A stretch of 47,736 bases of DNA from a virus, in IMG/VR virus record IMGVR_UViG_3300045988_059397. One strand, 5' to 3'. The notes beneath the pieces are model-generated. The model saw nothing but the letters and a program-made list of their open reading frames with translations, was not told the DNA's origin and ran no database searches. Of this stretch, positions 19,686-34,948 are shown piece by piece (positions within the stretch are counted from its first letter, which is position 1; each line of letters opens with the position of its first letter). The translations under genes were made by a program, and so were the position numbers.

Positions 19686-20084
19686 ATGCAGGTCATCAGC
19701 GACGCCAAGGAGCTCGAGAAGCACACCTACATCAAGACGCGCAACCCGAACATCTTCCCCAAGAAGGAACGGCTCGGGCTGGCGCAACGGATGATGAACG
19801 AGGCCAGCGACCTCGTCGCCGACCTGATGGAAGCCAACGACCTGCTCCTGACAGACCCGCAGGAGCGGGAGCTGCGATACCGGGCGCAACGCTCGGCCCT
19901 GCGCAACTGCCGGAAACTGATCCACCACATCGAGCTCGCCCATGAGATCCTCAGCGGGCTCGGCGACGACGCCTTTGCACACTGGTCGCGGATGGCGGCC
20001 GGCGTCAAAAATCAGACCGCTAAATGGTACAAATCCGATAAAGAAAGGGCCGCCAAGATGGACGCGCAGGCGCGTCATCAATAG
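19686..20084 (+). CDS. avd: DGR accessory variability determinant (Avd-like four-helix-bundle protein)
   Basis: 132 aa, basic and all-helical. Lies immediately 5' of the template repeat and the RT, which is the position and size typical of Avd. Confidence 0.7.
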   Translation: MQVISDAKELEKHTYIKTRNPNIFPKKERLGLAQRMMNEASDLVADLMEANDLLLTDPQERELRYRAQRSALRNCRKLIHHIELAHEILSGLGDDAFAHWSRMAAGVKNQTAKWYKSDKERAAKMDAQARHQ

Positions 20085-20114
20085 GCAGCCCGTGGGGTAC
20101 GCCTTGTTTTTTCG

Positions 20115-20209
20115 TGCCGGGTCGGCCAACAACGCCCGCAACGTCAATTCCGACGGCACGCTGAACAGGAACAACGCCTACAACGGCAACAACGGCCTGC
20201 GCCCCGCTT
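20115..20209 (+). repeat. DGR template repeat (TR)
   Basis: 95 nt collinear with VR1 (22181-22275); its 3' 79 nt are collinear with VR2 (32323-32401). Contains 24 adenines, mostly as in-frame AAC x9, AAT and AGG. Ends in GC-rich GGCCTGCGCCCCGCTT. Confidence 0.9.
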
Positions 20210-20232
20210 CGATGGATAGCCCGACTTATTAA

Positions 20233-20250
20233 CCGGCCGGAGACGGCCGG
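20233..20250 (+). ncRNA. GC hairpin in the TR-RT spacer (candidate structural element of the DGR RNA)
   Basis: CCGGCCGgagaCGGCCGG: 7-bp stem with a GAGA tetraloop, 24 nt after the TR end. Confidence 0.4.
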
Positions 20251-20403
20251 CGAACACTGCGCACCATCATCCAAGGAAGGCGTATCCCTCCCGCACCCGG
20301 CGCCGTATGACCGGCCCGGCCATGGGTAAACACAGGACTGCCGATGCTCCCGGCGGCGCACGCAAAGCGTGGCCGGAGCTGCCGACGGCAGAGATTTTTT
20401 CGC

Positions 20404-21666
20404 ATGGAGAACATCGTCAACAGCTTCAACTCGCTATACAAAGCATACCGCAAGACCCGCTGCGGGAAGCGGGACAACCCCACGGCCATGCGCTACCGCA
20501 TGGAGGCCATCGAGCGCACGGCCGACCTCTCTGACCGCCTCCAGCGGCGCGAGTACACCTTCGGGCCCTACTATCCCTTCAAGGTGTACGAGCCGAAGGA
20601 GCGGCTCGTCCTTGCCATAGACTTCGAGGGCAAAGTCGTCCAGCACTCGCTCTGCGACAACGTCCTCGAGCCCGTATTCTCCCGGCGCTTTATCCGGGAC
20701 AACTATGCGGGGCAGATCAGCAAAGGCACCCACGACGGCCTCGACCGTCTGGCCGGCGCCATGCGCCACTACTTTTTCAGCCGGAAGGCAGCAGACGATG
20801 AGGCCCGGCGGGCCGCCGGCCTGCCATACCGGCCGATGGAGGAGTGGGACTACGCCGAGGGCTGGGTGCTGAAAGGTGACTTTTCCAAGTTCTTTTACAC
20901 CCTGCTGCACGCCGTCTGCTTCGAGAAGGCCCGCAAGGCTCTGGCCTTCCTGTCTGACGAGGAGCTGATCGACTTCGTCGAGTGGCTGCTCTGGATCGTC
21001 ATCGACAGCACGCCAGACCCCGGGATCCCAATCGGCAACCAGTCGAGCCAACTGCTCGCCCTGCTCTATCTGGACGACTTCGACCACTGGCTGCGGGATG
21101 ACCTCGGCCTCGTCTATGGCCGTTACATGGACGACTTCTACATCATCAGCAGCGACAAGCTGCTGCTCCGGGAGATCCTCAAGCGGATCGAGGAGTACAT
21201 CAAGCCGCTGGGCCTGCGCCTGAACGGCAAGACGCAGATCTTCCCGCTCAAGAATGGCATCGACTTCCTCGGCTTCCACACCTACCTCACGAGCACCGGC
21301 AAGGTGGTCAGAAAGGTGAGGGCCAAGAGCATCGACAACATGAAGCGGAAGATCCGCAAGTTCCGCGGCCTCGTGGACAGGGGCAAGATGACGCTCGAGA
21401 GCGTGAGCCAATCCTACGCAAGCTGGACGGGCCACATCTCGCACGGCAACACCTACCACCTACGGCAGAACATGGACGCCTATTTCTTCGCATACTTCCC
21501 GGAGCTAAAACCTACCGAAAGGAGACAAGACTCATGCCTCAAACCCTTGGAAGCCTTGCCAACAAGGCAAAAATCAAGTTCGGCAGCCTCTACGGCGCGC
21601 CGATCATCTGGATCAAGGCCGACAAAAACCACGCCGGCTACCCCTCCAACAGCGTCACCCTCGTGA
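20404..21666 (+). CDS. DGR reverse transcriptase
   Basis: Starts at MENIVNSFNSLYKAY. Carries the DGR-specific 'IGNQSSQ' motif and the catalytic 'YMDD'. The 3' end overlaps the target gene by 133 nt. Confidence 0.9.
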   Translation: MENIVNSFNSLYKAYRKTRCGKRDNPTAMRYRMEAIERTADLSDRLQRREYTFGPYYPFKVYEPKERLVLAIDFEGKVVQHSLCDNVLEPVFSRRFIRDNYAGQISKGTHDGLDRLAGAMRHYFFSRKAADDEARRAAGLPYRPMEEWDYAEGWVLKGDFSKFFYTLLHAVCFEKARKALAFLSDEELIDFVEWLLWIVIDSTPDPGIPIGNQSSQLLALLYLDDFDHWLRDDLGLVYGRYMDDFYIISSDKLLLREILKRIEEYIKPLGLRLNGKTQIFPLKNGIDFLGFHTYLTSTGKVVRKVRAKSIDNMKRKIRKFRGLVDRGKMTLESVSQSYASWTGHISHGNTYHLRQNMDAYFFAYFPELKPTERRQDSCLKPLEALPTRQKSSSAASTARRSSGSRPTKTTPATPPTASPS

Positions 21667-23237
21667 CCAACCAGATCATCAAGCTGCTGTGCTTCGACGC
21701 GATGGAGCCGGCCAACGGCAACAGCGACCGCCGAAACTACGGCAATAACCGCTACATCTACTCCAACCTGCGCCAGTGGCTCAACAGCGACAAGGGCGCG
21801 GGCCAGTGGTACACCGCGCAGCACTCGGCGGATCAGGCTCCCGACTCGTCCCACGTCTGGAGCGGCTACAACCCCTACAACACCATCGCCGGCTTCCTCA
21901 ACGGCTTCACGGCCAACGAGCGGGCCGCCCTGCTCGCCACCACCATCACCGTCGGCAAGAGCTCCACGGACGGCGGCGGGACGGAGACCTGTGTGGACAA
22001 GGTTTTCCCCCTGTCCTGCACCGAGGTCAACCTCTCGGGCGACCATGTGTGCGGCAACAAGCTGGCGATATTCAGCGACAACTCCAGCCGCATCGCTACC
22101 GTCTCGGCCTCGGCCGCTGCCAACTCCAACTACGATGTCGACGCCAATCAGGCGTGGTACTACTGGCTGCGGGACGCCTATGCCGGGTCGGCCGTCAGCG
22201 CCCGCCGCGTCTTTTCCGACGGCACGCTGTACTGGGACCGCGCCTACGACGGCAGCTTCGGCCTGCGCCCCGCTTGTAATCTGTCCTCTGATCTCCTGGT
22301 CTCCGACACCACCGACTCGGACGGCTGCTACACAATCGTCTACAACCAGCCGCCCACGGCCCCCGGCACCATCACTGTCCCGAGCGAGGTCATCGGCGGC
22401 GAAAACCTGAGCATCTCGTGGGGACAGTCGACCGATCCCGACGGCAACCTCTCCGGCTACAAGCTGGAGCGCAAGGTGGACGACGGCACATGGGCGCAGA
22501 TTTACAGCGGCAGCTCCCGGAGCTACACCGACTCCATCACCTACGGATGGACGAGCGTGCAGTACCGCGTCAAGGCATACGACTCGGCCGGGGCCGAGAG
22601 CGCCTACACCACCAGCGCCGTGCGCACCGTCACCAACAACCGGCCGCCCGTCATCAGCGGCAGCGACACCGACCTCGGCAGCTTCACCACCACGCCGCCA
22701 TCCTACGAGTACACCGTCACCGACGCCGACGGCCATCAGGTCACGGTCGTGGAGAAGCTGGACACCACCACGCTGCGCACCTACACGGCCACCCTCGGCG
22801 ACACCAACGAGCTCGAGATCACGGCCGACCAGTGGCTCAAGCTGCTGAACGGCGACCACACCCTGACCATCACCGCCACCGACGCCAAGAACGAGAGCAC
22901 CGTGCGCACCCTGTCCTTCGACAAGGCCATGCACTCGGTCGAGTTCGAGCAGACCGTGGCGATGGCGGCCGACGATATGCCGACCAAGGCCCTCGTCAAT
23001 ATTCAGGGCAGCTTCCCGACCGGCAGCACCCTTCAGGTCTGGATCTGCAACAACGGCAACGACGCCGAGCCCACATGGGAGGACATCACCACCAAGGCCC
23101 TGACCAGCCAGAAGCACTTTTTCACCAACCAGACCAAGACCGCCGCAAGCTGGGGCGTGAAGATCAAGGTCAAGCTCCTGCGCGGCTCGGCCGAGGGCGA
23201 CTGCTACATCCAGTCGGTCGGCGGCAACTTCGCATAA
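21534..23237 (+). CDS. DGR target protein 1: N-terminal variable ligand-binding domain plus FN3/Ig-like domains (putative receptor-binding or tail-fibre protein)
   Basis: 567 aa with a strong RBS (AAAGGAGAC). VR1 encodes aa 217-248 ('AGSAVSARRVFSDGTLYWDRAYDGSFGLRPAC'). FN3-like 'PPTAPGTITVP...LSISWGQSTDPDGNLSGYKLERKVDDGTWAQIY' follows. Confidence 0.85.
   Translation: MPQTLGSLANKAKIKFGSLYGAPIIWIKADKNHAGYPSNSVTLVTNQIIKLLCFDAMEPANGNSDRRNYGNNRYIYSNLRQWLNSDKGAGQWYTAQHSADQAPDSSHVWSGYNPYNTIAGFLNGFTANERAALLATTITVGKSSTDGGGTETCVDKVFPLSCTEVNLSGDHVCGNKLAIFSDNSSRIATVSASAAANSNYDVDANQAWYYWLRDAYAGSAVSARRVFSDGTLYWDRAYDGSFGLRPACNLSSDLLVSDTTDSDGCYTIVYNQPPTAPGTITVPSEVIGGENLSISWGQSTDPDGNLSGYKLERKVDDGTWAQIYSGSSRSYTDSITYGWTSVQYRVKAYDSAGAESAYTTSAVRTVTNNRPPVISGSDTDLGSFTTTPPSYEYTVTDADGHQVTVVEKLDTTTLRTYTATLGDTNELEITADQWLKLLNGDHTLTITATDAKNESTVRTLSFDKAMHSVEFEQTVAMAADDMPTKALVNIQGSFPTGSTLQVWICNNGNDAEPTWEDITTKALTSQKHFFTNQTKTAASWGVKIKVKLLRGSAEGDCYIQSVGGNFA
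22181..22275 (+). repeat. DGR variable repeat 1 (VR1)
   Basis: 79/95 identical to the TR. All 16 mismatches lie at TR adenines: 20128, 29, 32, 40, 41, 46, 47, 64, 67, 70, 73, 74, 82, 89, 91, 92. Confidence 0.9.
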
Positions 23238-23270: not shown

Positions 23271-23435
23271 ATGGTCTACTTCATGGAACACAGCATCAAA
23301 GCCATCCACGAGAAGGAGCAGGCCGCCGTCGGCGGCGGGGGCGGCACCTCTCCCGAGGACAAGGAGCGGATCACCAAGCTCGAGGACGAGCTCGATGACC
23401 TGTCCGGCGCAATCGAGAGGGGGCTGACCACATGA
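23271..23435 (+). CDS. Small hypothetical protein (54 aa, below the ORF-track cutoff)
   Basis: ATG 6 nt after AAAGGAGGAG. MVYFMEHSIKAIHEKEQAAVGGGGGTSPEDKERITKLEDELDDLSGAIERGLTT. ATGA overlap with the next gene. Confidence 0.5.
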   Translation: MVYFMEHSIKAIHEKEQAAVGGGGGTSPEDKERITKLEDELDDLSGAIERGLTT

Positions 23436-24184
23436 GCAACAAGTACAGCGGCCTCGAGGCAGCCCTGCGCAGCGCCCGCATGACCTTCGTGAGCGAGGCC
23501 AACGCCGGCGACCGCACCGGCACCGAGATCATCGCCTGCGAGGATCTGCTGCCGGCGTGGACGAAGGCCGGCCCCAAGGGGGACGGCAGCCACGAGGTCG
23601 GCGAAGCCTGCACCCACGACGGGCAGAGCTGGCGCTGCTGCCAAGCCCACAACACCAACAACAACCCGGACATCGAGCCGGGCAATAGCCCCGCACAGTG
23701 GGCCCCGTATCATACCACCGACCCGACCAAGGCCAAGGCGTTCATCCAGCCAACGGGCGCCCACGACGCCTACATGAAGGGCGAGTGCTGCCTGTGGACG
23801 GATGGCAAGGTCTACCGCTCCATCATGGAAACGGCCAACGCATACAGCCCGGCGGCCTACCCGCAAGGCTGGGAGGAAGTGACCGCCGCAGGTGATCCCG
23901 GCACGACCCCGGAACCGGGCACAGAGCCGGAACCAGAAACACCCACGGAGCCCGGCACAGAGCAGGAACCGGGGCAAGATCCTGAAACCGGCGGCGAGGA
24001 GACGGGAGAAACCGTCCCGGCCTTCGTCCAGCCTACCGGCGCGCATGACGCCTACCAAACCGGCGACCGCGTGACCTACAACGGCCAGATCTACGAGAGC
24101 ACCATCGACAACAACGTCTGGTCGCCGGACACCTACCCGCAGGGCTGGGAGGTCGTCGAGGTCGAGGATGGAGGTGCAGCATGA
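23432..24184 (+). CDS. Carbohydrate-binding protein with three CBM5/12-like repeats
   Basis: 250 aa. Repeated 'QPTGAHDAY(M/Q)(K/T)G(E/D)...Y...W(S)P..YPQGWE(E/V)V' motifs separated by a Pro/Glu/Thr linker. Confidence 0.6.
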   Translation: MSNKYSGLEAALRSARMTFVSEANAGDRTGTEIIACEDLLPAWTKAGPKGDGSHEVGEACTHDGQSWRCCQAHNTNNNPDIEPGNSPAQWAPYHTTDPTKAKAFIQPTGAHDAYMKGECCLWTDGKVYRSIMETANAYSPAAYPQGWEEVTAAGDPGTTPEPGTEPEPETPTEPGTEQEPGQDPETGGEETGETVPAFVQPTGAHDAYQTGDRVTYNGQIYESTIDNNVWSPDTYPQGWEVVEVEDGGAA

Positions 24185-26524: not shown

Positions 26525-27034
26525 TCATTCCTCTGTGGCGTCGTCCTCTGCTGGATCCTCGCCGCCATCGCTCTGCGCCGCCTCAGCAGCGGCCAGCTCG
26601 GCCTCGGTCGGGTGGAAGCGGACAACATAGCCGTTGACATCATAGAAGCCGCCGAGGGCGACCGTGAAGATGTCCACGATCCAACCGATCCCGAAGAAGC
26701 CAGCCGTCAGCGTCCAGATGACCCCGGTGCCAATCTTCCCCACATAGTAGCGGTGCACACCGAGCACCCCGAGGAAAATGCACAACGGCAGGACGACCGC
26801 TTTGCTTTTCGGTGAGGTGGGGCGCTGTGCTGCCGGCACGCTGGCCGGCCGGCCGCCACTGGTCGTGTACGACAGGCCCGTGCCGGGCACTCCGACGGTC
26901 GTGTGGCTTTTCCCGGTCGTGCTGACTGTGTGCTTCAGGCCCTTCGGGCCGAAGGTGACGCTCGCGCTCTTTTTATTCAAGTTCACACGGACGCCGGGAG
27001 CGATCTTAATACTGCGCCGGAAACGTAAACCCAT
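26525..27034 (-). CDS. DUF4236-like plus TM2-domain membrane protein (moron; the only convincing minus-strand gene)
   Basis: 169 aa. N-terminus 'MGLRFRRSIKIAPGVRVNLNKKSASVTFG' is DUF4236-like. 'LCIFLGVLGVHRYYVGKIGTGVIWTLTAGFFGIGWIVD' is a TM2 motif. RBS AAAAGGAGG on the minus strand. Confidence 0.75.
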   Translation of the reverse strand: MGLRFRRSIKIAPGVRVNLNKKSASVTFGPKGLKHTVSTTGKSHTTVGVPGTGLSYTTSGGRPASVPAAQRPTSPKSKAVVLPLCIFLGVLGVHRYYVGKIGTGVIWTLTAGFFGIGWIVDIFTVALGGFYDVNGYVVRFHPTEAELAAAEAAQSDGGEDPAEDDATEE

Positions 27035-27837: not shown

Positions 27838-28887
27838 ATGGGGAAACACTTCAGCCACCTGACACCAACGCAGCGCACGCAGATCGACGCCTTCAGGCGC
27901 GCCGGCATGAAGGTCGTGGACATCGCCAAGGAGGTCGGCGTCCATTACACCACCATCTACCGGGAGCTCAAGCGGTGCACCTATGAACACCTGAACAGCG
28001 ACTACACGACCGAGATCCGATACAACCCCGACGGGGCGCAGGCTCGGTATGAGGCCAACCTGCGGGCGAAGGGCCCGGAGCTGAAGATCGGCAACGACTA
28101 CGAGCTCGCCGACTACCTGATCGGCAAGATCCGGGACGAGAAGTACAGCCCCGAGGCAGCCATCGGAGAGGCCGAGGTCTGCGGCTGGCCCTTCCGGGTG
28201 CATATCTGCGCGAGCACGGCCTACAACTACATCCGGGCCGAGATCTTCGGCGACGATCTCACCGTGGAAATGCTGCCGCAGCATGGCAAGCGCCGCCGGA
28301 AGCCCGAGCGGCCAGAGGGCAGCATCCCCCGCAAGCCGGCCGGCAAGAGCATAGAAAAGCGGCCGGAGATCGTCGACACGCGCACGACCTTCGGCCACTG
28401 GGAGATGGACAGCCTCGAGAGCGGCAAGGGCTTCAAGCGGACGTGGCTCATGCTGACCGAGCGCAAGACCCGCCGGGAGATCATCGTCCCCATGAAGGAC
28501 AAGACCAGCGAGAGCGTCGTCCGGGCCCTGAACGGCATCGAGCGGAAGCTGGGCGCCCTGTTCCCCCGGATCTTCGTGACCATCACCTGCGACAACGGCA
28601 CCGAGTTCGCAGACGCCGATGGCATCGAAAGCAAGCGCCGCGGGAAGGGCAAGCGCACGACCGTCTACTACTGCCACCCGTACACCCCGAGCGAGCGCGG
28701 CACCAATGAAAACCAAAACGGACTGATCCGGCGACTCGTCCCGAAGGGGACAGACCTCGCCACCCTCTCGCCCCAAGAGGTAAAGGCCGCCGAGGCATGG
28801 CTCAACAGCTACCCCCGCAAAATGTTCGGTTTTCTGTGCTCCGAGCAGCTTTTCAGGGAGGAGCTGGCCCTCATTCTGGCCCGCTGA
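27838..28887 (+). CDS. IS30-family DDE transposase/integrase
   Basis: 349 aa. N-terminal HTH 'LTPTQRTQIDAFRRAGMKVVDIAKEVGVHYTTIYRELKR'. DDE core with 'HWEMDS', 'TCDNGTEF' and 'YYCHPYTPSERGTNENQNGLIRR', typical of IS30. Confidence 0.85.
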   Translation: MGKHFSHLTPTQRTQIDAFRRAGMKVVDIAKEVGVHYTTIYRELKRCTYEHLNSDYTTEIRYNPDGAQARYEANLRAKGPELKIGNDYELADYLIGKIRDEKYSPEAAIGEAEVCGWPFRVHICASTAYNYIRAEIFGDDLTVEMLPQHGKRRRKPERPEGSIPRKPAGKSIEKRPEIVDTRTTFGHWEMDSLESGKGFKRTWLMLTERKTRREIIVPMKDKTSESVVRALNGIERKLGALFPRIFVTITCDNGTEFADADGIESKRRGKGKRTTVYYCHPYTPSERGTNENQNGLIRRLVPKGTDLATLSPQEVKAAEAWLNSYPRKMFGFLCSEQLFREELALILAR

Positions 28888-30635: not shown

Positions 30636-30900
30636 CGGCTTCAAGTTCGACACCTCTCTGCTCTGCCGGGCCTCGTTCCCGGCCGAGCTGGAGGAAGACG
30701 GCGGCCGCTGCATCGTGGAGGTGACGGTCTACCGGCTGAACGCCGTGGCCGTCCACACCTTCCTGATGGACGGGCCCGAGCCGCTGCTGCGGCACCTCGG
30801 GCTCTCCGAGGCTGACACCTACATCACCAAGCACGACATCGACGACCTCGTCACGGTCGTCCGCATCATCAGAGAGGAGGCACCAGCATGGCAGCATTGA
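30628..30900 (+). CDS. Hypothetical protein
   Basis: 90 aa. ATG after AAGGAGG, overlapping the preceding stop. Confidence 0.5.
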   Translation: MTDGFKFDTSLLCRASFPAELEEDGGRCIVEVTVYRLNAVAVHTFLMDGPEPLLRHLGLSEADTYITKHDIDDLVTVVRIIREEAPAWQH

Positions 30901-31730
30901 AAGAAATCGCCCGGGAGTACGCCAGCGAGATCCGCGACGGGATCGGCTGGGTAATCGTCTACCGCACCGGCCGCTCGTGGCACGCCCTGACCGTCTGGAG
31001 CGACCTCAGCAACAACGAGTGGGAGACCGACGACATCAACGACTCTCTCGAGGCCCTGCGCCTCGACCCCCGGGCCGTGGCCCTGAACGGCTACTACCTC
31101 GGCCACTTCGGCGACATGACCATCGAGGACATCGCCGCCGGCATCCGCTACCACTACGAGCGCGGCACCAACGCGCTCGCAGATGATGACATCCTCACAC
31201 AGGCCCGGGCCGACATCGAGGCGGCCCGGAAGCAGGCCGCCGAGGCCGGGCTTCCCTTCAGCGAGCGTCTGGTGGATGGCCCGGAGGACGAGCTCAACCC
31301 CTACATATACGACGGCAGCATGACCGCCGAGGACTACAACGCCATGCAGCAGGCCAGAGACACCCACGCCGCCCTCGTCGAGGTTGTGACCGACCACTAC
31401 CCAAACGCCGACGAGGAGGCCATCGAGCGCATCGCAGAGGCCGCCAGCAGCATGAAGCTCAGCCCGGAGGCCGTGCAGCGGATCCTCGACGCCTTCGACA
31501 GGATCACGGAAACCATCAAGGATCTCTGTGAGTGGGCCGCTCAGACCATCAGGACGCTCGCGGACTTCTTCACCGAGACGCTCGGCGACTTCATGCTGCG
31601 TCGGGCCCCGCCCAAGTGGCGCCACTACGCCCTCCACGCGAAGCGGGCCCGCGTCCGCAAGAAATACCGCAACCGCATCCGGCGGGCCTTCTTCGCTGCG
31701 CTGGCTTCGGAAGGGGGTGGAAGCTCGTGA
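30888..31730 (+). CDS. Hypothetical protein (acidic N-terminal region, basic C-terminus)
   Basis: 280 aa ORF with RBS GAGAGGAGG. Confidence 0.5.
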   Translation: MAALKEIAREYASEIRDGIGWVIVYRTGRSWHALTVWSDLSNNEWETDDINDSLEALRLDPRAVALNGYYLGHFGDMTIEDIAAGIRYHYERGTNALADDDILTQARADIEAARKQAAEAGLPFSERLVDGPEDELNPYIYDGSMTAEDYNAMQQARDTHAALVEVVTDHYPNADEEAIERIAEAASSMKLSPEAVQRILDAFDRITETIKDLCEWAAQTIRTLADFFTETLGDFMLRRAPPKWRHYALHAKRARVRKKYRNRIRRAFFAALASEGGGSS

Positions 31731-31906
31731 AGTTCAAGTGCGTCGGCTGCGGGCTTTACTGGAATGTGAGCGTATACCAGCAGATCCCCCGCGGCGGCTA
31801 CATCTGCCCGCATTGTGAGAGCCGGCTGCGCGCCGGCGAGACATTACCCAACCAGCGGCCCGGCCAGAACGACCGGCCGCAGACAACGAAAGGAGCAAAA
31901 CCATGA
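31727..31906 (+). CDS. Small zinc-ribbon protein
   Basis: 59 aa. GTGA start/stop overlap. 'CVGCG...CPHCE'. Confidence 0.4.
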   Translation: MKFKCVGCGLYWNVSVYQQIPRGGYICPHCESRLRAGETLPNQRPGQNDRPQTTKGAKP

Positions 31907-32601
31907 AGAAAGCCCTCAAGGCCGCCGCCCGCGGCACCATCTTCCCCTATGCTGGCGAGAAATGGGTCGCGCTGGAGCACGAAGCCAGCGGCCGCACCCT
32001 CTGTCTGCGCCTCGACCTGATCCCAAACAAGCCCTTTGACGAGAACAACTGCAACAACTTCGCAACCTCCAGCAGCAAAGAGTGGATGAACGGCCCCTAC
32101 CTCGACAACCTGATCGACGCCGTAAAGGGCCCGCACGCCTTCCTCACCACCGAGCTCGACCTGACGGCCGACGACGGCCTGAAGGACTACGGCACCTGCA
32201 CCGTCACCATCTTCTCGCTGACCGTTGACCAGTACCGGCGCAACCGCGATGTCATCCCCAACGCGGACGACTGGTGGTGGCTCTCTACCGCATACAGCAC
32301 CGAGGCCAATGGGTACGAGCATAGCGCCCGCAGCGTCTATTCCGACGGCACGCTGTACTGGGACGGCGCCTACCACGGCGACCGCGGCCTGCGCCCCGCT
32401 TGCTATCTGGACTCCGATCTCCTGATCTCCGTCGACAGCGAGGACACCGGCATCGGCCCGCAGGAGGCCGGCACCATCGTCGCGGAGCTGGTCGAGCAGT
32501 TCGGCGGCTCCTACGCCACCGGGGAGCAGTTCGCGGCCGAGGTCTCTTTCCTGCTCGGGAAGCTGCGGGCCATCCGGGAGAAGGAGGCGGCCCATGAGTA
32601 A
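31903..32601 (+). CDS. DGR target protein 2: stand-alone paralog of the variable domain of target 1
   Basis: 232 aa. VR2 encodes aa 141-167 ('SARSVYSDGTLYWDGAYHGDRGLRPAC'). Shares with target 1 the '(L/M)N(G/S)', 'FSL(T/S)' and 'WW(W)L' landmarks and the post-VR 'L(D/S)SDLL(I/V)S' motif. No obvious signal peptide. Confidence 0.8.
   Translation: MKKALKAAARGTIFPYAGEKWVALEHEASGRTLCLRLDLIPNKPFDENNCNNFATSSSKEWMNGPYLDNLIDAVKGPHAFLTTELDLTADDGLKDYGTCTVTIFSLTVDQYRRNRDVIPNADDWWWLSTAYSTEANGYEHSARSVYSDGTLYWDGAYHGDRGLRPACYLDSDLLISVDSEDTGIGPQEAGTIVAELVEQFGGSYATGEQFAAEVSFLLGKLRAIREKEAAHE
32323..32401 (+). repeat. DGR variable repeat 2 (VR2), remote from the RT
   Basis: 67/79 identical to TR 20131-20209. 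All 12 mismatches lie at TR adenines: 20132, 41, 46, 64, 67, 70, 73, 74, 82, 88, 91, 92. Confidence 0.9.
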
Positions 32602-33304
32602 CCTCTCCAGCCTGCTCGACCGCTACAAGGCCCTCGTCATTTTCGACACGGAGACCAGCGGCCTCAACCCGGGAGACAACCAGATCATCGAGCTCGCGGC
32701 GCTGCGTGTGGAGCGCACACAGACCGGGGCCCTGCGGATCGCTGGCAAGATGGACACCTTCATCAAGCTGCCAGAGGGTGAGAAGCTCCCCGAGAACATC
32801 GTCACCCTCACCGGGATCACCGACCGGCTGCTGGAGGCTGAGGGCGTGCAGAGTGGCACGGCCGTCAGCCGCTTCCTCAAGCTGGTCAAGCCCGGCCCTG
32901 TGCTGATGGTAGCCCACAACGCGCAGTTTGACGCTTGTTTTCTGCGGGAGCTGCTGCGGGGCTTCAATCCCGGGCACCTCGACTGGCTGGACAGCCTGAC
33001 GGTCTACAAAGACCGGCGCGCCTACCCTCACAAGCTCGCCAACGCGATCATCGCCTACGAGCTCGAGGACAAGGTGCAGAACAGCCACCGAGCCATCGAC
33101 GACGTGCTCGCCCTGTTCGAGGTGCTGAAGGCCATGGACGAGGAACGGGACGACCTCGGCAGCTATGTCAACCTGTTCGGCTATAACCCCAAGTACGGCG
33201 TCAGCGGCCGCCGGATCACCGGCGTGCGCTATGAGCCGCAGGGCTTCAACAAGAGCATCACGCGCCCCGAGCAGACGCTCCCGGCCCGGATGTCACGGAG
33301 GTGA
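32594..33304 (+). CDS. DnaQ-like DEDDh 3'-5' exonuclease
   Basis: 236 aa. ExoI 'VIFDTETSGL', ExoII 'MVAHNAQFDACFL', ExoIII 'HRAIDDVLA'. Confidence 0.8.
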   Translation: MSNLSSLLDRYKALVIFDTETSGLNPGDNQIIELAALRVERTQTGALRIAGKMDTFIKLPEGEKLPENIVTLTGITDRLLEAEGVQSGTAVSRFLKLVKPGPVLMVAHNAQFDACFLRELLRGFNPGHLDWLDSLTVYKDRRAYPHKLANAIIAYELEDKVQNSHRAIDDVLALFEVLKAMDEERDDLGSYVNLFGYNPKYGVSGRRITGVRYEPQGFNKSITRPEQTLPARMSRR

Positions 33305-33309
33305 AGAAC

Positions 33310-33576
33310 ATGGCCCCGGCCATCACCATCACGAGCGAGGAGCTGCGCGAGCGTGTCGAGGAGCACCTCGGACACTGGATCCCCGACAGCCTGTGGGAAC
33401 GCTCCGAGCCCTATGCCCGCAGGAAGCTCGACCTCTGCCGTGAGCGCAGCCCGGAGATCGACTACTACAACGACGAGTACCTCGTCCTGCTGACCGCCGA
33501 CACCGTCAGGGAGACCGCGTTCAGCGACTTCACAATCGCAGCCTGCGAGGCCCTCATGACGGCCCGGGGCCAGTGA
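33310..33576 (+). CDS. Hypothetical protein
   Basis: 88 aa. ATG 8 nt after GGAGG. Confidence 0.45.
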   Translation: MAPAITITSEELRERVEEHLGHWIPDSLWERSEPYARRKLDLCRERSPEIDYYNDEYLVLLTADTVRETAFSDFTIAACEALMTARGQ

Positions 33577-33588
33577 AAGGAGAAAACC

Positions 33589-34272
33589 ATGGAAGCAACA
33601 AAAGAAAGGGCCGCCCGACGCGACCGGGCGACCCCTGCGAGAACATCCGGCAGCTCGCCAGCGCACGGATCCCGCACCCAAAGTATAACACGCCGCCGGC
33701 GCCGTGCCAAGGCCCGGATCCGGCAGGCGGCCGTCCTTTTGACGGCTGCTGTCATCGTGGCCGGCATCGGCACAGTCATCTCGACCATCGCCGGAGGCCG
33801 TGAAAATACCACGGAGCTCCCGGAGCCGACCGCAGAGCAACCGGCGGTCGTCGTCACGACGCCCGCAGCGAGTACGCAGACGCCGGAGCCGTCCGAGGCA
33901 CTCGTCCGCTTCTACCTCAGCGCCAGTGAGCGCGACACCGTGGAGCGTGTCGTCATGGCCGAGTCTGGCGGCGAGAGCTTCGAGGGGCAAATGCTGGTCG
34001 CTCAGTGTATTCTCAACGCCGCCGAGAAGGAGGGCGTGCAGCCCTCTGAGGCCGTCGTGATTTACAGCTACACCAGCAACCGCCCCGACCCCACGCAGAG
34101 CGTCAAGGACGCCGTCGCGGCCGTATTTGACCGTGGCGAGGTCGCCATCGACGCCCCCGTCATGTACTTCTACAACCCCGCCCTCGTGACGAGCGACTGG
34201 CATGAGAGCCAGATCTTCGTCGCAGAGGTCGGCGGCCACCGCTTTTTCGCAGAAAGGAGCCCGGCAGCATGA
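33589..34272 (+). CDS. Membrane-anchored cell-wall hydrolase (SleB/Hydrolase_2-like)
   Basis: 227 aa. Basic N-terminus, TM 'AAVLLTAAVIVAGIGTVISTIAG', Pro/Thr linker. 'VERVVMAESGGESFEGQMLVAQCILNAA' is a SleB-type motif. Confidence 0.6.
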   Translation: MEATKERAARRDRATPARTSGSSPAHGSRTQSITRRRRRAKARIRQAAVLLTAAVIVAGIGTVISTIAGGRENTTELPEPTAEQPAVVVTTPAASTQTPEPSEALVRFYLSASERDTVERVVMAESGGESFEGQMLVAQCILNAAEKEGVQPSEAVVIYSYTSNRPDPTQSVKDAVAAVFDRGEVAIDAPVMYFYNPALVTSDWHESQIFVAEVGGHRFFAERSPAA

Positions 34273-34948
34273 TCCAGCCCAACACCGTCATCACCGGCGA
34301 CAGCCTGACTGTGCTGCGCAGCATGGACGACGAGAGCGTCGACATGGTCATCACTGACCCGCCCTACGGCATCGACTACCAGAGCGGGCGCAAAGAAAAG
34401 GAGCGCCGACTCGCAAAGATCAAAAACGACAAGGCCCCGTTCATCTGGTGGATCTACGACGCCGCCAGAGTCGTGAAACGCGGGGGGGGGTACTTTGCTT
34501 CGCAAGATGGGATGTGCAGCAGACCTTCATGGACGCCCTGCGGCTCGCCGGCCTGACAGTCAAGTCGGTGATCGTGTGGGATAAGAAGGCGCACGGCATG
34601 GGAGACCTCAAGGGCTCCTTTGCCCCGCGCTATGAGGTCATCATCTTCGCCACCAAGGGCCGCTTCGAGCTGCCCGGGAAGCGGCCGGACGACCTGATCG
34701 CCTGCGCCAAGGTCGGCAACCAAAACCTCACACACCCTAACGAGAAGCCCGTCGAGCTGCTTGAACAGCTCATAGAGGCGACCACCACGCCGGGCGCCCT
34801 GATCCTCGACCCTTTCGCCGGCAGCGGCTCCACGCTCGTCGCTGCGGCCAAAACGGGGCGCAAGTACATCGGGATCGAGATAGACGAACATTACAGCCAC
34901 CTCGCGGCCACACGGGCCGCGGAGTACCAGAAAGGAGAAACCGCATGA
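34269..34948 (+). pseudogene. N6/N4 DNA methyltransferase (DPPY type) interrupted by a frameshift at a G9 tract
   Basis: The N-terminal part (34269..34556) has 'VITDPPYG'. The C-terminal part (frame of 34448..34948) has 'HPNEKPVELLEQLI...DPFAGSGST'. The two frames join cleanly if the tract is G10. Confidence 0.8.
34482..34490 (+). repeat. Poly-G homopolymer (G9) at the frameshift point of methyltransferase 1
   Basis: aaacgcGGGGGGGGGtactttgc. Confidence 0.95.

Follow-up and report, generated by a model that had tools for sequence, protein, structure and literature searches.

An adenine-specific diversity-generating retroelement with one template and two target genes in a temperate phage of gut Clostridia

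Introduction

A viral sequence of 47,736 nucleotides (nt), IMG/VR record IMGVR_UViG_3300045988_059397 and here called the window, contains an apparent diversity-generating retroelement (DGR), which raises three questions: whether the element is genuine, whether it still diversifies proteins and which genes it serves. An earlier note on this DNA had placed the whole element at 19686-23237, in the order avd (accessory variability determinant), template repeat (TR), reverse transcriptase (RT) and a target gene that holds the variable repeat (VR). Our follow-up leads with high confidence to a functional DGR in a temperate gut Clostridia myovirus near the metagenomic phage nd4, which diversifies two genes from a single TR. 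All parts of the element and both of its targets lie on the + strand. The evidence that carries this reading is the anatomy of the repeats, the identity of the RT and Avd proteins and the pattern of variation among related genomes; the RNA around the TR and the surroundings of the targets are considered thereafter.

One template and two variable repeats

The TR (20115-20209) is a non-coding stretch of 95 nt with 24 adenines, located between avd and the RT gene. The earlier note had described it as collinear with VR1 (22181-22275), which occupies codons 217-247 of target 1, and a repeat search bears this out with a gapless direct repeat of 95 nt and 83% identity that stops sharply at both ends. 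The mismatches had also been described as confined to TR adenines. By our own count all 16 are, falling on 16 of the 24 adenines, a placement with a hypergeometric probability of 1.3e-12 for 16 mismatches, 24 adenines and 95 positions. The adenines are organized as in-frame codons in the way that had been proposed, with nine AAC, one AAT and one AGG in the frame of the open reading frame (ORF) starting at 21534, and A-to-N substitution never turns them into a stop. In that same frame the TR has three additional adenine-bearing codons with a single A each (GAC, ACG and TAC), and these are mutated in relatives. Because they were omitted, the earlier diversity figure of about 10^12 protein variants was too low; recomputed, it becomes 1.1e14.

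The repeat identity had further been said to end in GC-rich sequence resembling the initiation of mutagenic homing (IMH) site. It ends exactly after GGCCTGCGCCCCGCTT, a 16-mer that forms the IMH*-like 3' end of the TR (20194-20209) and has three exact copies in the window (TR, VR1 and VR2), where 0.14 would be expected by chance. The third copy, at 32386-32401, marks VR2 (32325-32401), a repeat of 77 nt covering codons 141-167 of target 2. Aligned with TR positions 20133-20209, which include 20 of the TR adenines, VR2 has 11 mismatches, 11 of 11 at TR adenines (p = 2.5e-8), and the window has no mismatch at any other TR base for VR1 or VR2. The third copy of the 16-mer and the adenine-only mismatches of VR2 therefore give the element two targets, one adjoining and the other 10 kb away. 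The extent originally assigned to it, 19686-23237, was too small, as it left out the second target about 10 kb downstream.

The TR is identical to that of the window in seven further loci that were fetched. Differences between TR lineages form a patch of three codons (equivalent to 20144-20155 of the window) that reads AAT TCC GAC, AAC ACC GAT, AGG AAC GAT or AAC TCT GAC; outside this patch the TR is invariant across loci L001-L074. Lineages therefore differ in the number of positions that can be diversified, with 24-25 adenines. An ORF that runs across the TR (19942-20232) was judged spurious; the one that nd4 has over its TR, also spurious, is labelled a hypothetical protein in the public annotation.

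Reverse transcriptase and Avd

The RT gene (20404-21666) encodes 420 amino acids (aa) from the ATG at 20404. Its ORF is open from 20344, and the ATG at 20404 (MENIV...) is the most likely start rather than 20344. The two motifs to which the earlier note had pointed are in place, IGNQSSQ at residue 210 and YMDD at residue 241. The protein matches Pfam RVT_1 and, over residues 3-378, PHROG 1423 (E 5e-116, 390 bits). Its best relative in the PDB is 8ub7_A, the RT (bRT) from Bordetella phage BPP-1, with E 1.2e-37 in two stretches spanning residues 5-358; the entry series 8ub7-8ube, which has this same RT sequence, was confirmed to be the DGR ribonucleoprotein. The next solved RT, that of a group II intron, follows at E 1.9e-10, a gap of 27 orders of magnitude in E-value.

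This gap bears directly on a different account of the locus, in which the RT would come from a group II intron, a retron or an abortive-infection or defence-associated system (Abi/DRT) and the repeats would be a duplicated protein motif that diverged by point mutation. Such an account can draw on matches of the RT to group II, Drt3a, retron and UG models of NCBIfam and PADLOC, with E-values from 1e-9 to 1e-26, and on the homologous protein motif that targets 1 and 2 have around their VRs. The model matches are partial, however, reaching only residues ~150-330 of the catalytic core, and they score far below the curated NCBIfam cutoffs (80 bits against 300 for group II, 49 against 200 for Drt3a and 36 against 235 for retron). 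The BPP-1 RT, by comparison, is matched 27 orders better than the next solved RT and across residues 5-358. An Rfam scan of the whole window at the gathering thresholds found no family, hence no intron or retron RNA. Being non-coding, the TR is not a paralogous protein motif, and the probability by chance of adenine-only mismatches is 1e-12 for VR1 and 2.5e-8 for VR2. We consider this account scarcely credible. Profile and PDB sequence scores place the RT beside that of the Bordetella phage DGR and away from the intron, retron and Abi enzymes, a grouping with which the earlier note would have taken its reading as refuted; on these scores it belongs to the DGR clade. Its assignment as a defence RT was likewise rejected, the PADLOC matches being limited to the RT core. 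A member of the RT's 90%-identity cluster (P0140) is publicly annotated as 'MatK/TrnK amino terminal region', which is misleading.

The gene before the TR (avd, 19686-20084) encodes a protein of 132 aa. It had been called basic, helical and Avd-like, and each of these terms holds: the isoelectric point is 9.3, four helices are predicted, and residues 1-131 match PHROG 3206, 'Avd protein of DGR', with E 9e-27. An AlphaFold2 model with a mean predicted local distance difference test score (pLDDT) of 91.6 forms a four-helix bundle. In Foldseek it aligns to the S23-family pentamer bundles 2gsc and 2rld with template modelling (TM) scores of 0.72-0.88 and to the Bordetella phage Avd, 4dwl, with a TM score of 0.83 when normalised by the target and 0.70 when normalised by the query (root-mean-square deviation 2.6). 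Sequence searches of the PDB with the same protein gave no meaningful match, and the NCBIfam Avd equivalog model reached 16.8 bits, below its cutoff of 80. The 132-aa ORF is thus identified as Avd by its PHROG profile match together with its predicted fold. A protein 91% identical to it (P0020) is publicly named 'sugar ABC transporter ATP-binding protein [Flavonifractor plautii]', a misleading label.

Variation among relatives

If the element is at work, its variable repeats should differ among close relatives at TR adenines. Copies of VR1 were drawn from IMG/VR with the invariant 3' flank as the sole anchor, so that nothing was assumed about the variable part. In 39 pairs of TR and VR1 located on the same contig, 580 of 961 TR-adenine sites differ (60%) versus 54 of 2744 other sites (2%), and many of the non-adenine differences trace to three aberrant pairs. 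Nearly every copy is distinct, 64 of 67 for VR1 and, by the same flank-anchored approach, 110 of 115 for VR2. In VR2 the mean column entropy is 1.54 bits where the TR has an adenine and 0.19 bits at the remaining columns; lineage differences in the TR itself account for the few non-adenine columns that vary. The VRs are hypervariable even among near-identical genomes: over 2.7 kb of RT and target 1, the divergence of the closest relatives from the window is 1.6-3.0%, but within VR1 it is 16-22%, about ten times as much. This is the pattern that the earlier note had proposed to look for by mapping reads, observed here between genomes, and each refuting outcome that the note had listed turned out in favour of a DGR. 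Since VR1 and VR2 are both hypervariable in relatives, the family is active. The DGR of the window is genuine and, judged from these sequence comparisons, very probably active as well.

The remaining doubt is whether the copy in the window is a fossil, with recognisable parts that no longer diversify anything and VR differences that record past activity only. There are grounds for asking. Related DGRs of Faecalibacterium phages were without read variation at the time of sampling (PMC11792537), the TR of Lachnoclostridium sp. An14 has lost several adenines, so that decay does occur in the family, and variation for the window copy is known from genomes, not from reads. Against this stand the intact ORFs of avd, the RT and both targets, the presence of YMDD and IGNQSSQ, a TR that has lost none of its 24 adenines and recurs unchanged in seven other loci, a conserved spacer behind it and the roughly tenfold greater divergence of the closest relatives inside VR1 than outside. 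A fossil element is accordingly very unlikely, and a functional DGR remains the preferred reading.

The An14 case merits a description of its own. The TR of this strain (NZ_NFLE01000004.1; L074 4345-4439, minus strand) has about eight A-to-N changes relative to the family TRs, with a normal TR-type spacer behind it. The changes, among them AAC to CTC, AGG to TGG and AAC to GAC, are not those of its own VR1, and the RT of An14 is identical to that of the window at 423 of 430 positions. In this strain mutagenesis or conversion seems to have reached the template itself, and its capacity to diversify would be eroded as a result.

Gene order and the overlap of RT and target 1

The order avd-TR-RT-target had been singled out as unusual. 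The target does lie downstream of the RT, but the arrangement is not unusual, as all 37 relatives examined share this placement. The avd-TR-RT segment forms the core of architecture B1; 68% of 372 DGRs fall under architecture B, the most frequent family, within which the position of the target varies, and non-adjacent targets within one prophage are common (Wu et al. 2018, PMC5758913). A published description of this very cassette exists for phage nd4 and over 50 genomes of its kind (PMC10743442). Lectin-type targets with an internal VR were rare among the DGRs surveyed in 2018 (PMC5758913); in the 'tentaclin' family, which was described in 2023 (PMC10743442), an internal VR is the trait that defines the group.

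The RT ORF was correctly reported to run 133 nt into the target, with the RT ending at 21666 and target 1 starting at 21534. In 36 of 37 relatives the overlap measures 44, 89, 92, 101 or 133 nt, and the remaining value, 221, is a script outlier. The RT tail past the conserved ...FPELKP lies in different reading frames in different lineages, and the last 44 RT codons, those that overlap target 1, are not conserved. Because its length and tail frame vary and the tail is unconserved, the overlap is incidental, a by-product of stop-poor, GC-rich sequence. A frameshifting signal or a functional extension of the RT was rejected on account of the variable lengths and tail frames.

The two targets

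Target 1 (21534-23237) is a 'tentaclin'-type protein of 567 aa, with an N-terminal DUF6273 domain that contains VR1, followed by C-terminal domains of about 320 aa. It is preceded by a conserved Shine-Dalgarno sequence, GAAAGGAGA, at 21517-21525. Residues 39-251 match Pfam DUF6273 (E 4e-37), and an end-to-end match to PHROG 10993 ('Hoc-like head decoration'; E 2e-238) covers the whole protein. Homology to the corresponding nd4 protein, nd4_tgt1, indicates the immunoglobulin (Ig)-like C-terminal domains that are among the tentaclin traits. Target 2 (31903-32601), in the early/replication module, encodes 232 aa with DUF6273 as its only domain (Pfam E 1e-9) and matches PHROG 9958 end to end (E 3e-68). 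Each VR lies at the C-terminal end of its own DUF6273 domain, and the protein motif around the VR is homologous in the two targets.

The setting of target 2 (neighbours 30888-34948) consists of early/replication genes, not structural ones. Target 2 overlaps a DnaQ-like exonuclease gene (32594-33304) by 8 nt; beyond this gene come a SleB-type cell-wall hydrolase (33589-34272) and then a DNA methyltransferase. By eye, and with no predictor used, the target 2 translation has no signal-peptide-like N-terminus, and it ends in a helical tail. Baykov et al. took target 2 of nd4 to be a virion receptor-binding protein (PMC10743442). The early-module position, the absence of a signal-like N-terminus, the helical tail and a diversification as strong as that of the tail-module target raise the thought that target 2 is perhaps not a virion protein. 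It could be an intracellular or non-structural hypervariable binding protein, directed for instance against variable factors of the host or of competitors; we hold this, along with the lesser idea that a flank such as the one common to both VRs is the true recipient signal in DGRs where donor and recipient have the same GC-rich boundary, to be unlikely. Were target 2 non-structural, one TR would feed two functionally unrelated outputs.

RNA elements around the template

Non-coding sequence, which begins 20 nt upstream of the TR and continues as far as the start codon of the RT, has a mean column identity of 94%, as compared with a difference of about 15% in coding DNA among relatives. Its RNA structure was predicted with RNAalifold on 14 closely related sequences. 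A long-range duplex of 11 base pairs brackets the TR, joining GGGTACGCCTT (20095-20105) to AAGGCGTATCC (20277-20287). All 11 pairs hold in 14 of 14 sequences and two of them covary, one from C-G to U-A in 6 sequences and the other from A-U to G-C in 1. When the 3' partner was slid by 1-2 columns, no compensatory pairs appeared; one (3 cells) appeared at +3. The spacer (Sp) region of 194 nt between the TR and the RT (20210-20403) is predicted to contain further elements. A GNRA-capped hairpin with one covarying pair (20233-20250) lies 24 nt past the TR, a CCATC strand (20264-20268) pairs with GATGG at 20211-20215, and behind a stem-loop (20290-20326) come an A-rich single strand (20327-20337) and then a long stem-loop (20338-20391) in which one pair covaries. 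A hairpin and T-run at 20379-20391, before the RT start, was rejected as a conserved terminator; it is not kept in nd4, where the bases join the covarying long stem.

The DGR RNA of BPP-1, resolved by cryo-electron microscopy, comprises an Avd-binding stem-loop after the TR, a template:primer duplex, the 'cPRT Stop' duplex (avd:Sp), which joins a segment upstream of the TR to the spacer, a short adenosine stem-loop and an RT-binding stem-loop, and the same elements were predicted in 207 of 278 Avd-containing DGRs (bioRxiv 10.1101/2023.10.23.563531). The elements predicted for the window follow the BPP-1 order, and the long-range duplex is a candidate counterpart of 'cPRT Stop'. By this homology, the individual spacer elements would have the roles of their BPP-1 counterparts.

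At the receiving end, the 30 nt that follow VR1 (22276-22305) recur after VR2 (32402-32431) and are absent from the TR, which makes them a candidate extension of the IMH. The consensus flanks of the two VRs agree at 26 of 30 positions, versus 10-12 of 48 in comparison with the TR flank. The flank also codes for a conserved motif, C-x-L-x-S-D-L-L. It could be the signal that tells recipient from donor. DGRs with identical IMH and IMH* do exist, and an IMH at an internal VR is under coding constraint (Wu et al. 2018, PMC5758913).

A model of template copying and its weak points

In the model that we propose, an RNA would be transcribed over about 20 nt upstream of the TR, the TR and the 194-nt spacer, and would fold around a complex of RT and Avd. 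The RT would then copy the TR into cDNA, misincorporating opposite template adenines. Priming in cis from the spacer, the roles of the RNA elements and receptor binding by the targets are all carried over from homology to BPP-1. The cDNA would replace the homologous VR in two genes, VR1 in the 567-aa tentaclin-type protein and VR2 in the 232-aa protein 10 kb away, with the common GC-rich 16-mer as the 3' boundary and the end of TR homology as the 5' boundary (95 nt for VR1, 77 nt for VR2). The outcome would be a DUF6273 lectin-like domain whose exposed face can take up to ~1e14 forms, all of them free of stops.

Several observations weigh against this reading or parts of it. Variation at TR-adenine positions in relatives was compared by genomes, not reads, which concerns the current activity of this particular copy. 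The covariation in the spacer is modest, amounting to four pairs in closely related sequences. The 16-mer is the same in TR, VR1 and VR2, and the distinction between donor and recipient is left unexplained by it. The lectin fold remains putative for these targets: AlphaFold2 modelled target 2 with a pLDDT of 39, which is unusable, and the 30 homologues listed for its alignment are all at least 88% identical. Finally, no inverted repeat or cruciform was found after the VRs, where 90-nt folds compared with shuffled sequence gave z = +0.62 for VR1 and +0.13 for VR2. A GC-rich inverted repeat is present in only 34% of DGRs (PMC5758913), and its lack therefore does not exclude membership.

Comparison with known systems

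The closest annotated phage is nd4 (OR777945.1), with 84.6% nucleotide identity over 98% of the window cassette. Both nd4 and nd12 come from the work of Baykov et al. 2023 (Int J Mol Sci 24:17324, PMC10743442), who gave the target 1 proteins the name tentaclins. They modelled the nd4 targets as lectin-fold domains with the VR as a surface beta-hairpin, documented A-to-N variation of VR1 and VR2 across 54 nd4-like genomes and reported an nd4-like prophage of ~85% identity in Flavonifractor plautii. Like the window, nd4 has avd, TR, RT and target 1 together and, about 10 kb downstream and next to a DnaQ-like exonuclease gene, a small second DUF6273 target that draws on the same TR. The amino-acid identity is 78% for target 1, over 567/569 residues including the C-terminal 100 aa, and 68% for target 2. 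Both have the GC-rich 16-mer at the repeat ends and a small myovirus backbone with a sheath. They differ in the TR, which in nd4 reads AAC ACC GAT and has 25 adenines whereas the window has AAT TCC GAC and 24, and in the overlap of RT and target 1, which is 92 nt with a different RT tail in nd4 and 133 nt in the window. The spacer RNA elements were not analysed in the nd4 paper.

The architecture, both targets and the hypervariation were therefore already known in 2023 from nd4 and its relatives, and the element of the window is a member of that group with a slightly different TR. What is added here is the second target in the window, flank-anchored evidence of activity for both VRs, the incidental nature of the RT/target overlap, a covariation-supported model of the spacer RNA and the candidate recipient-specific flank. 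As a discovery the element has little weight. Its practical value is that of a well-annotated, intact example in a widespread temperate phage whose terminase is found on contigs of isolates, and it would permit experiments on what the two lectin-like proteins bind, on whether target 2 belongs to the virion and on how donor and recipient are distinguished.

The prototype DGR of BPP-1 (mtd-avd-TR-brt) shares with the window the avd-TR-RT core, a homologous RT (E 1e-37), the Avd fold, adenine-specific mutagenesis, AAC-rich TR codons and a GC-rich 3' boundary. At the level of predicted RNA structure, the resemblance extends to a hairpin just past the TR, a duplex that joins the spacer to a segment upstream of the TR, and a long 3' stem-loop. 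Unlike BPP-1, where the target lies upstream of avd, the window has its target downstream of the RT and a second, non-adjacent one; both are DUF6273 proteins, not Mtd. VR1 is internal, in an N-terminal domain, rather than at the C-terminus, the VRs are without an inverted repeat, and donor and recipient have the same GC-rich element.

The Faecalibacterium phages Mushu, Lelie, CP11, Roos and Pioen are likewise temperate phages of gut Clostridia with DUF6273 targets and a VR at the C-terminal end of the domain (PMC5883640, PMC11792537). In both Lelie and CP11 a large DUF6273 target is accompanied by a small one, and the large targets of these phages have been termed 'Hoc-like', with lectin and Ig-like domains (PMC11792537). 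The Hoc-like gene of Mushu has ~76% nucleotide similarity over 120 nt to the C-terminal part of target 1. Their backbones, in contrast, are different, with no extended nucleotide similarity to the window beyond that 120-nt stretch.

The phage and its hosts

The window resembles a whole phage genome of 47,736 bp. The modules follow one another on the + strand: small and large terminases, portal and capsid; tail sheath, tape measure, baseplate and tail fibre; avd-TR-RT-target 1; a carbohydrate-binding module (CBM) family 5/12 protein, holin and endolysin; an rve-type integrase; and an early/replication module of target 2, the DnaQ-like exonuclease, methyltransferases, Erf, a replication initiator and a DnaC-like loader. 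ARAGORN found no tRNA and no tmRNA in the window. The large terminase (894-2816) is present as an exact protein under the name 'MULTISPECIES [Clostridia]', which includes Butyricicoccus pullicaecorum 1.2, and in 3054 index blocks. This exact protein occurs on bacterial contigs of up to 816 kb, among them contigs of cultured isolates, so the phage is temperate and very widespread. In the prophages L075-L079 the small terminase comes right after the genes that stand at the right end of the window (methyltransferase and DUF1492). The phage, which occurs in several genera, is thus represented by the window in full, in permuted form. This TR is also present in related prophages of a Christensenellales metagenome-assembled genome and of Lachnoclostridium sp. 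An14. The host phage of the DGR is thus a temperate myovirus of gut Clostridia and a close relative of nd4.

A minus-strand gene with DUF4236 and TM2 domains (26525-27034) and an HTH_38/rve 'transposase' (27838-28887) occupy the interval from the lysis module to the early module. The latter gene is probably the prophage integrase, and the region around it is likely to serve lysogeny and attachment. After target 1 and a 54-aa ORF, the CBM5/12 gene (23432-24184) encodes a protein of 250 aa, two stretches of which match the module. Within the gene there is a direct repeat (23737-23784 and 24019-24066), and short tandem repeats (23894-23986) occur in a linker rich in Pro, Glu and Thr. The product, encoded where the tail module ends, may be a further adhesion protein.

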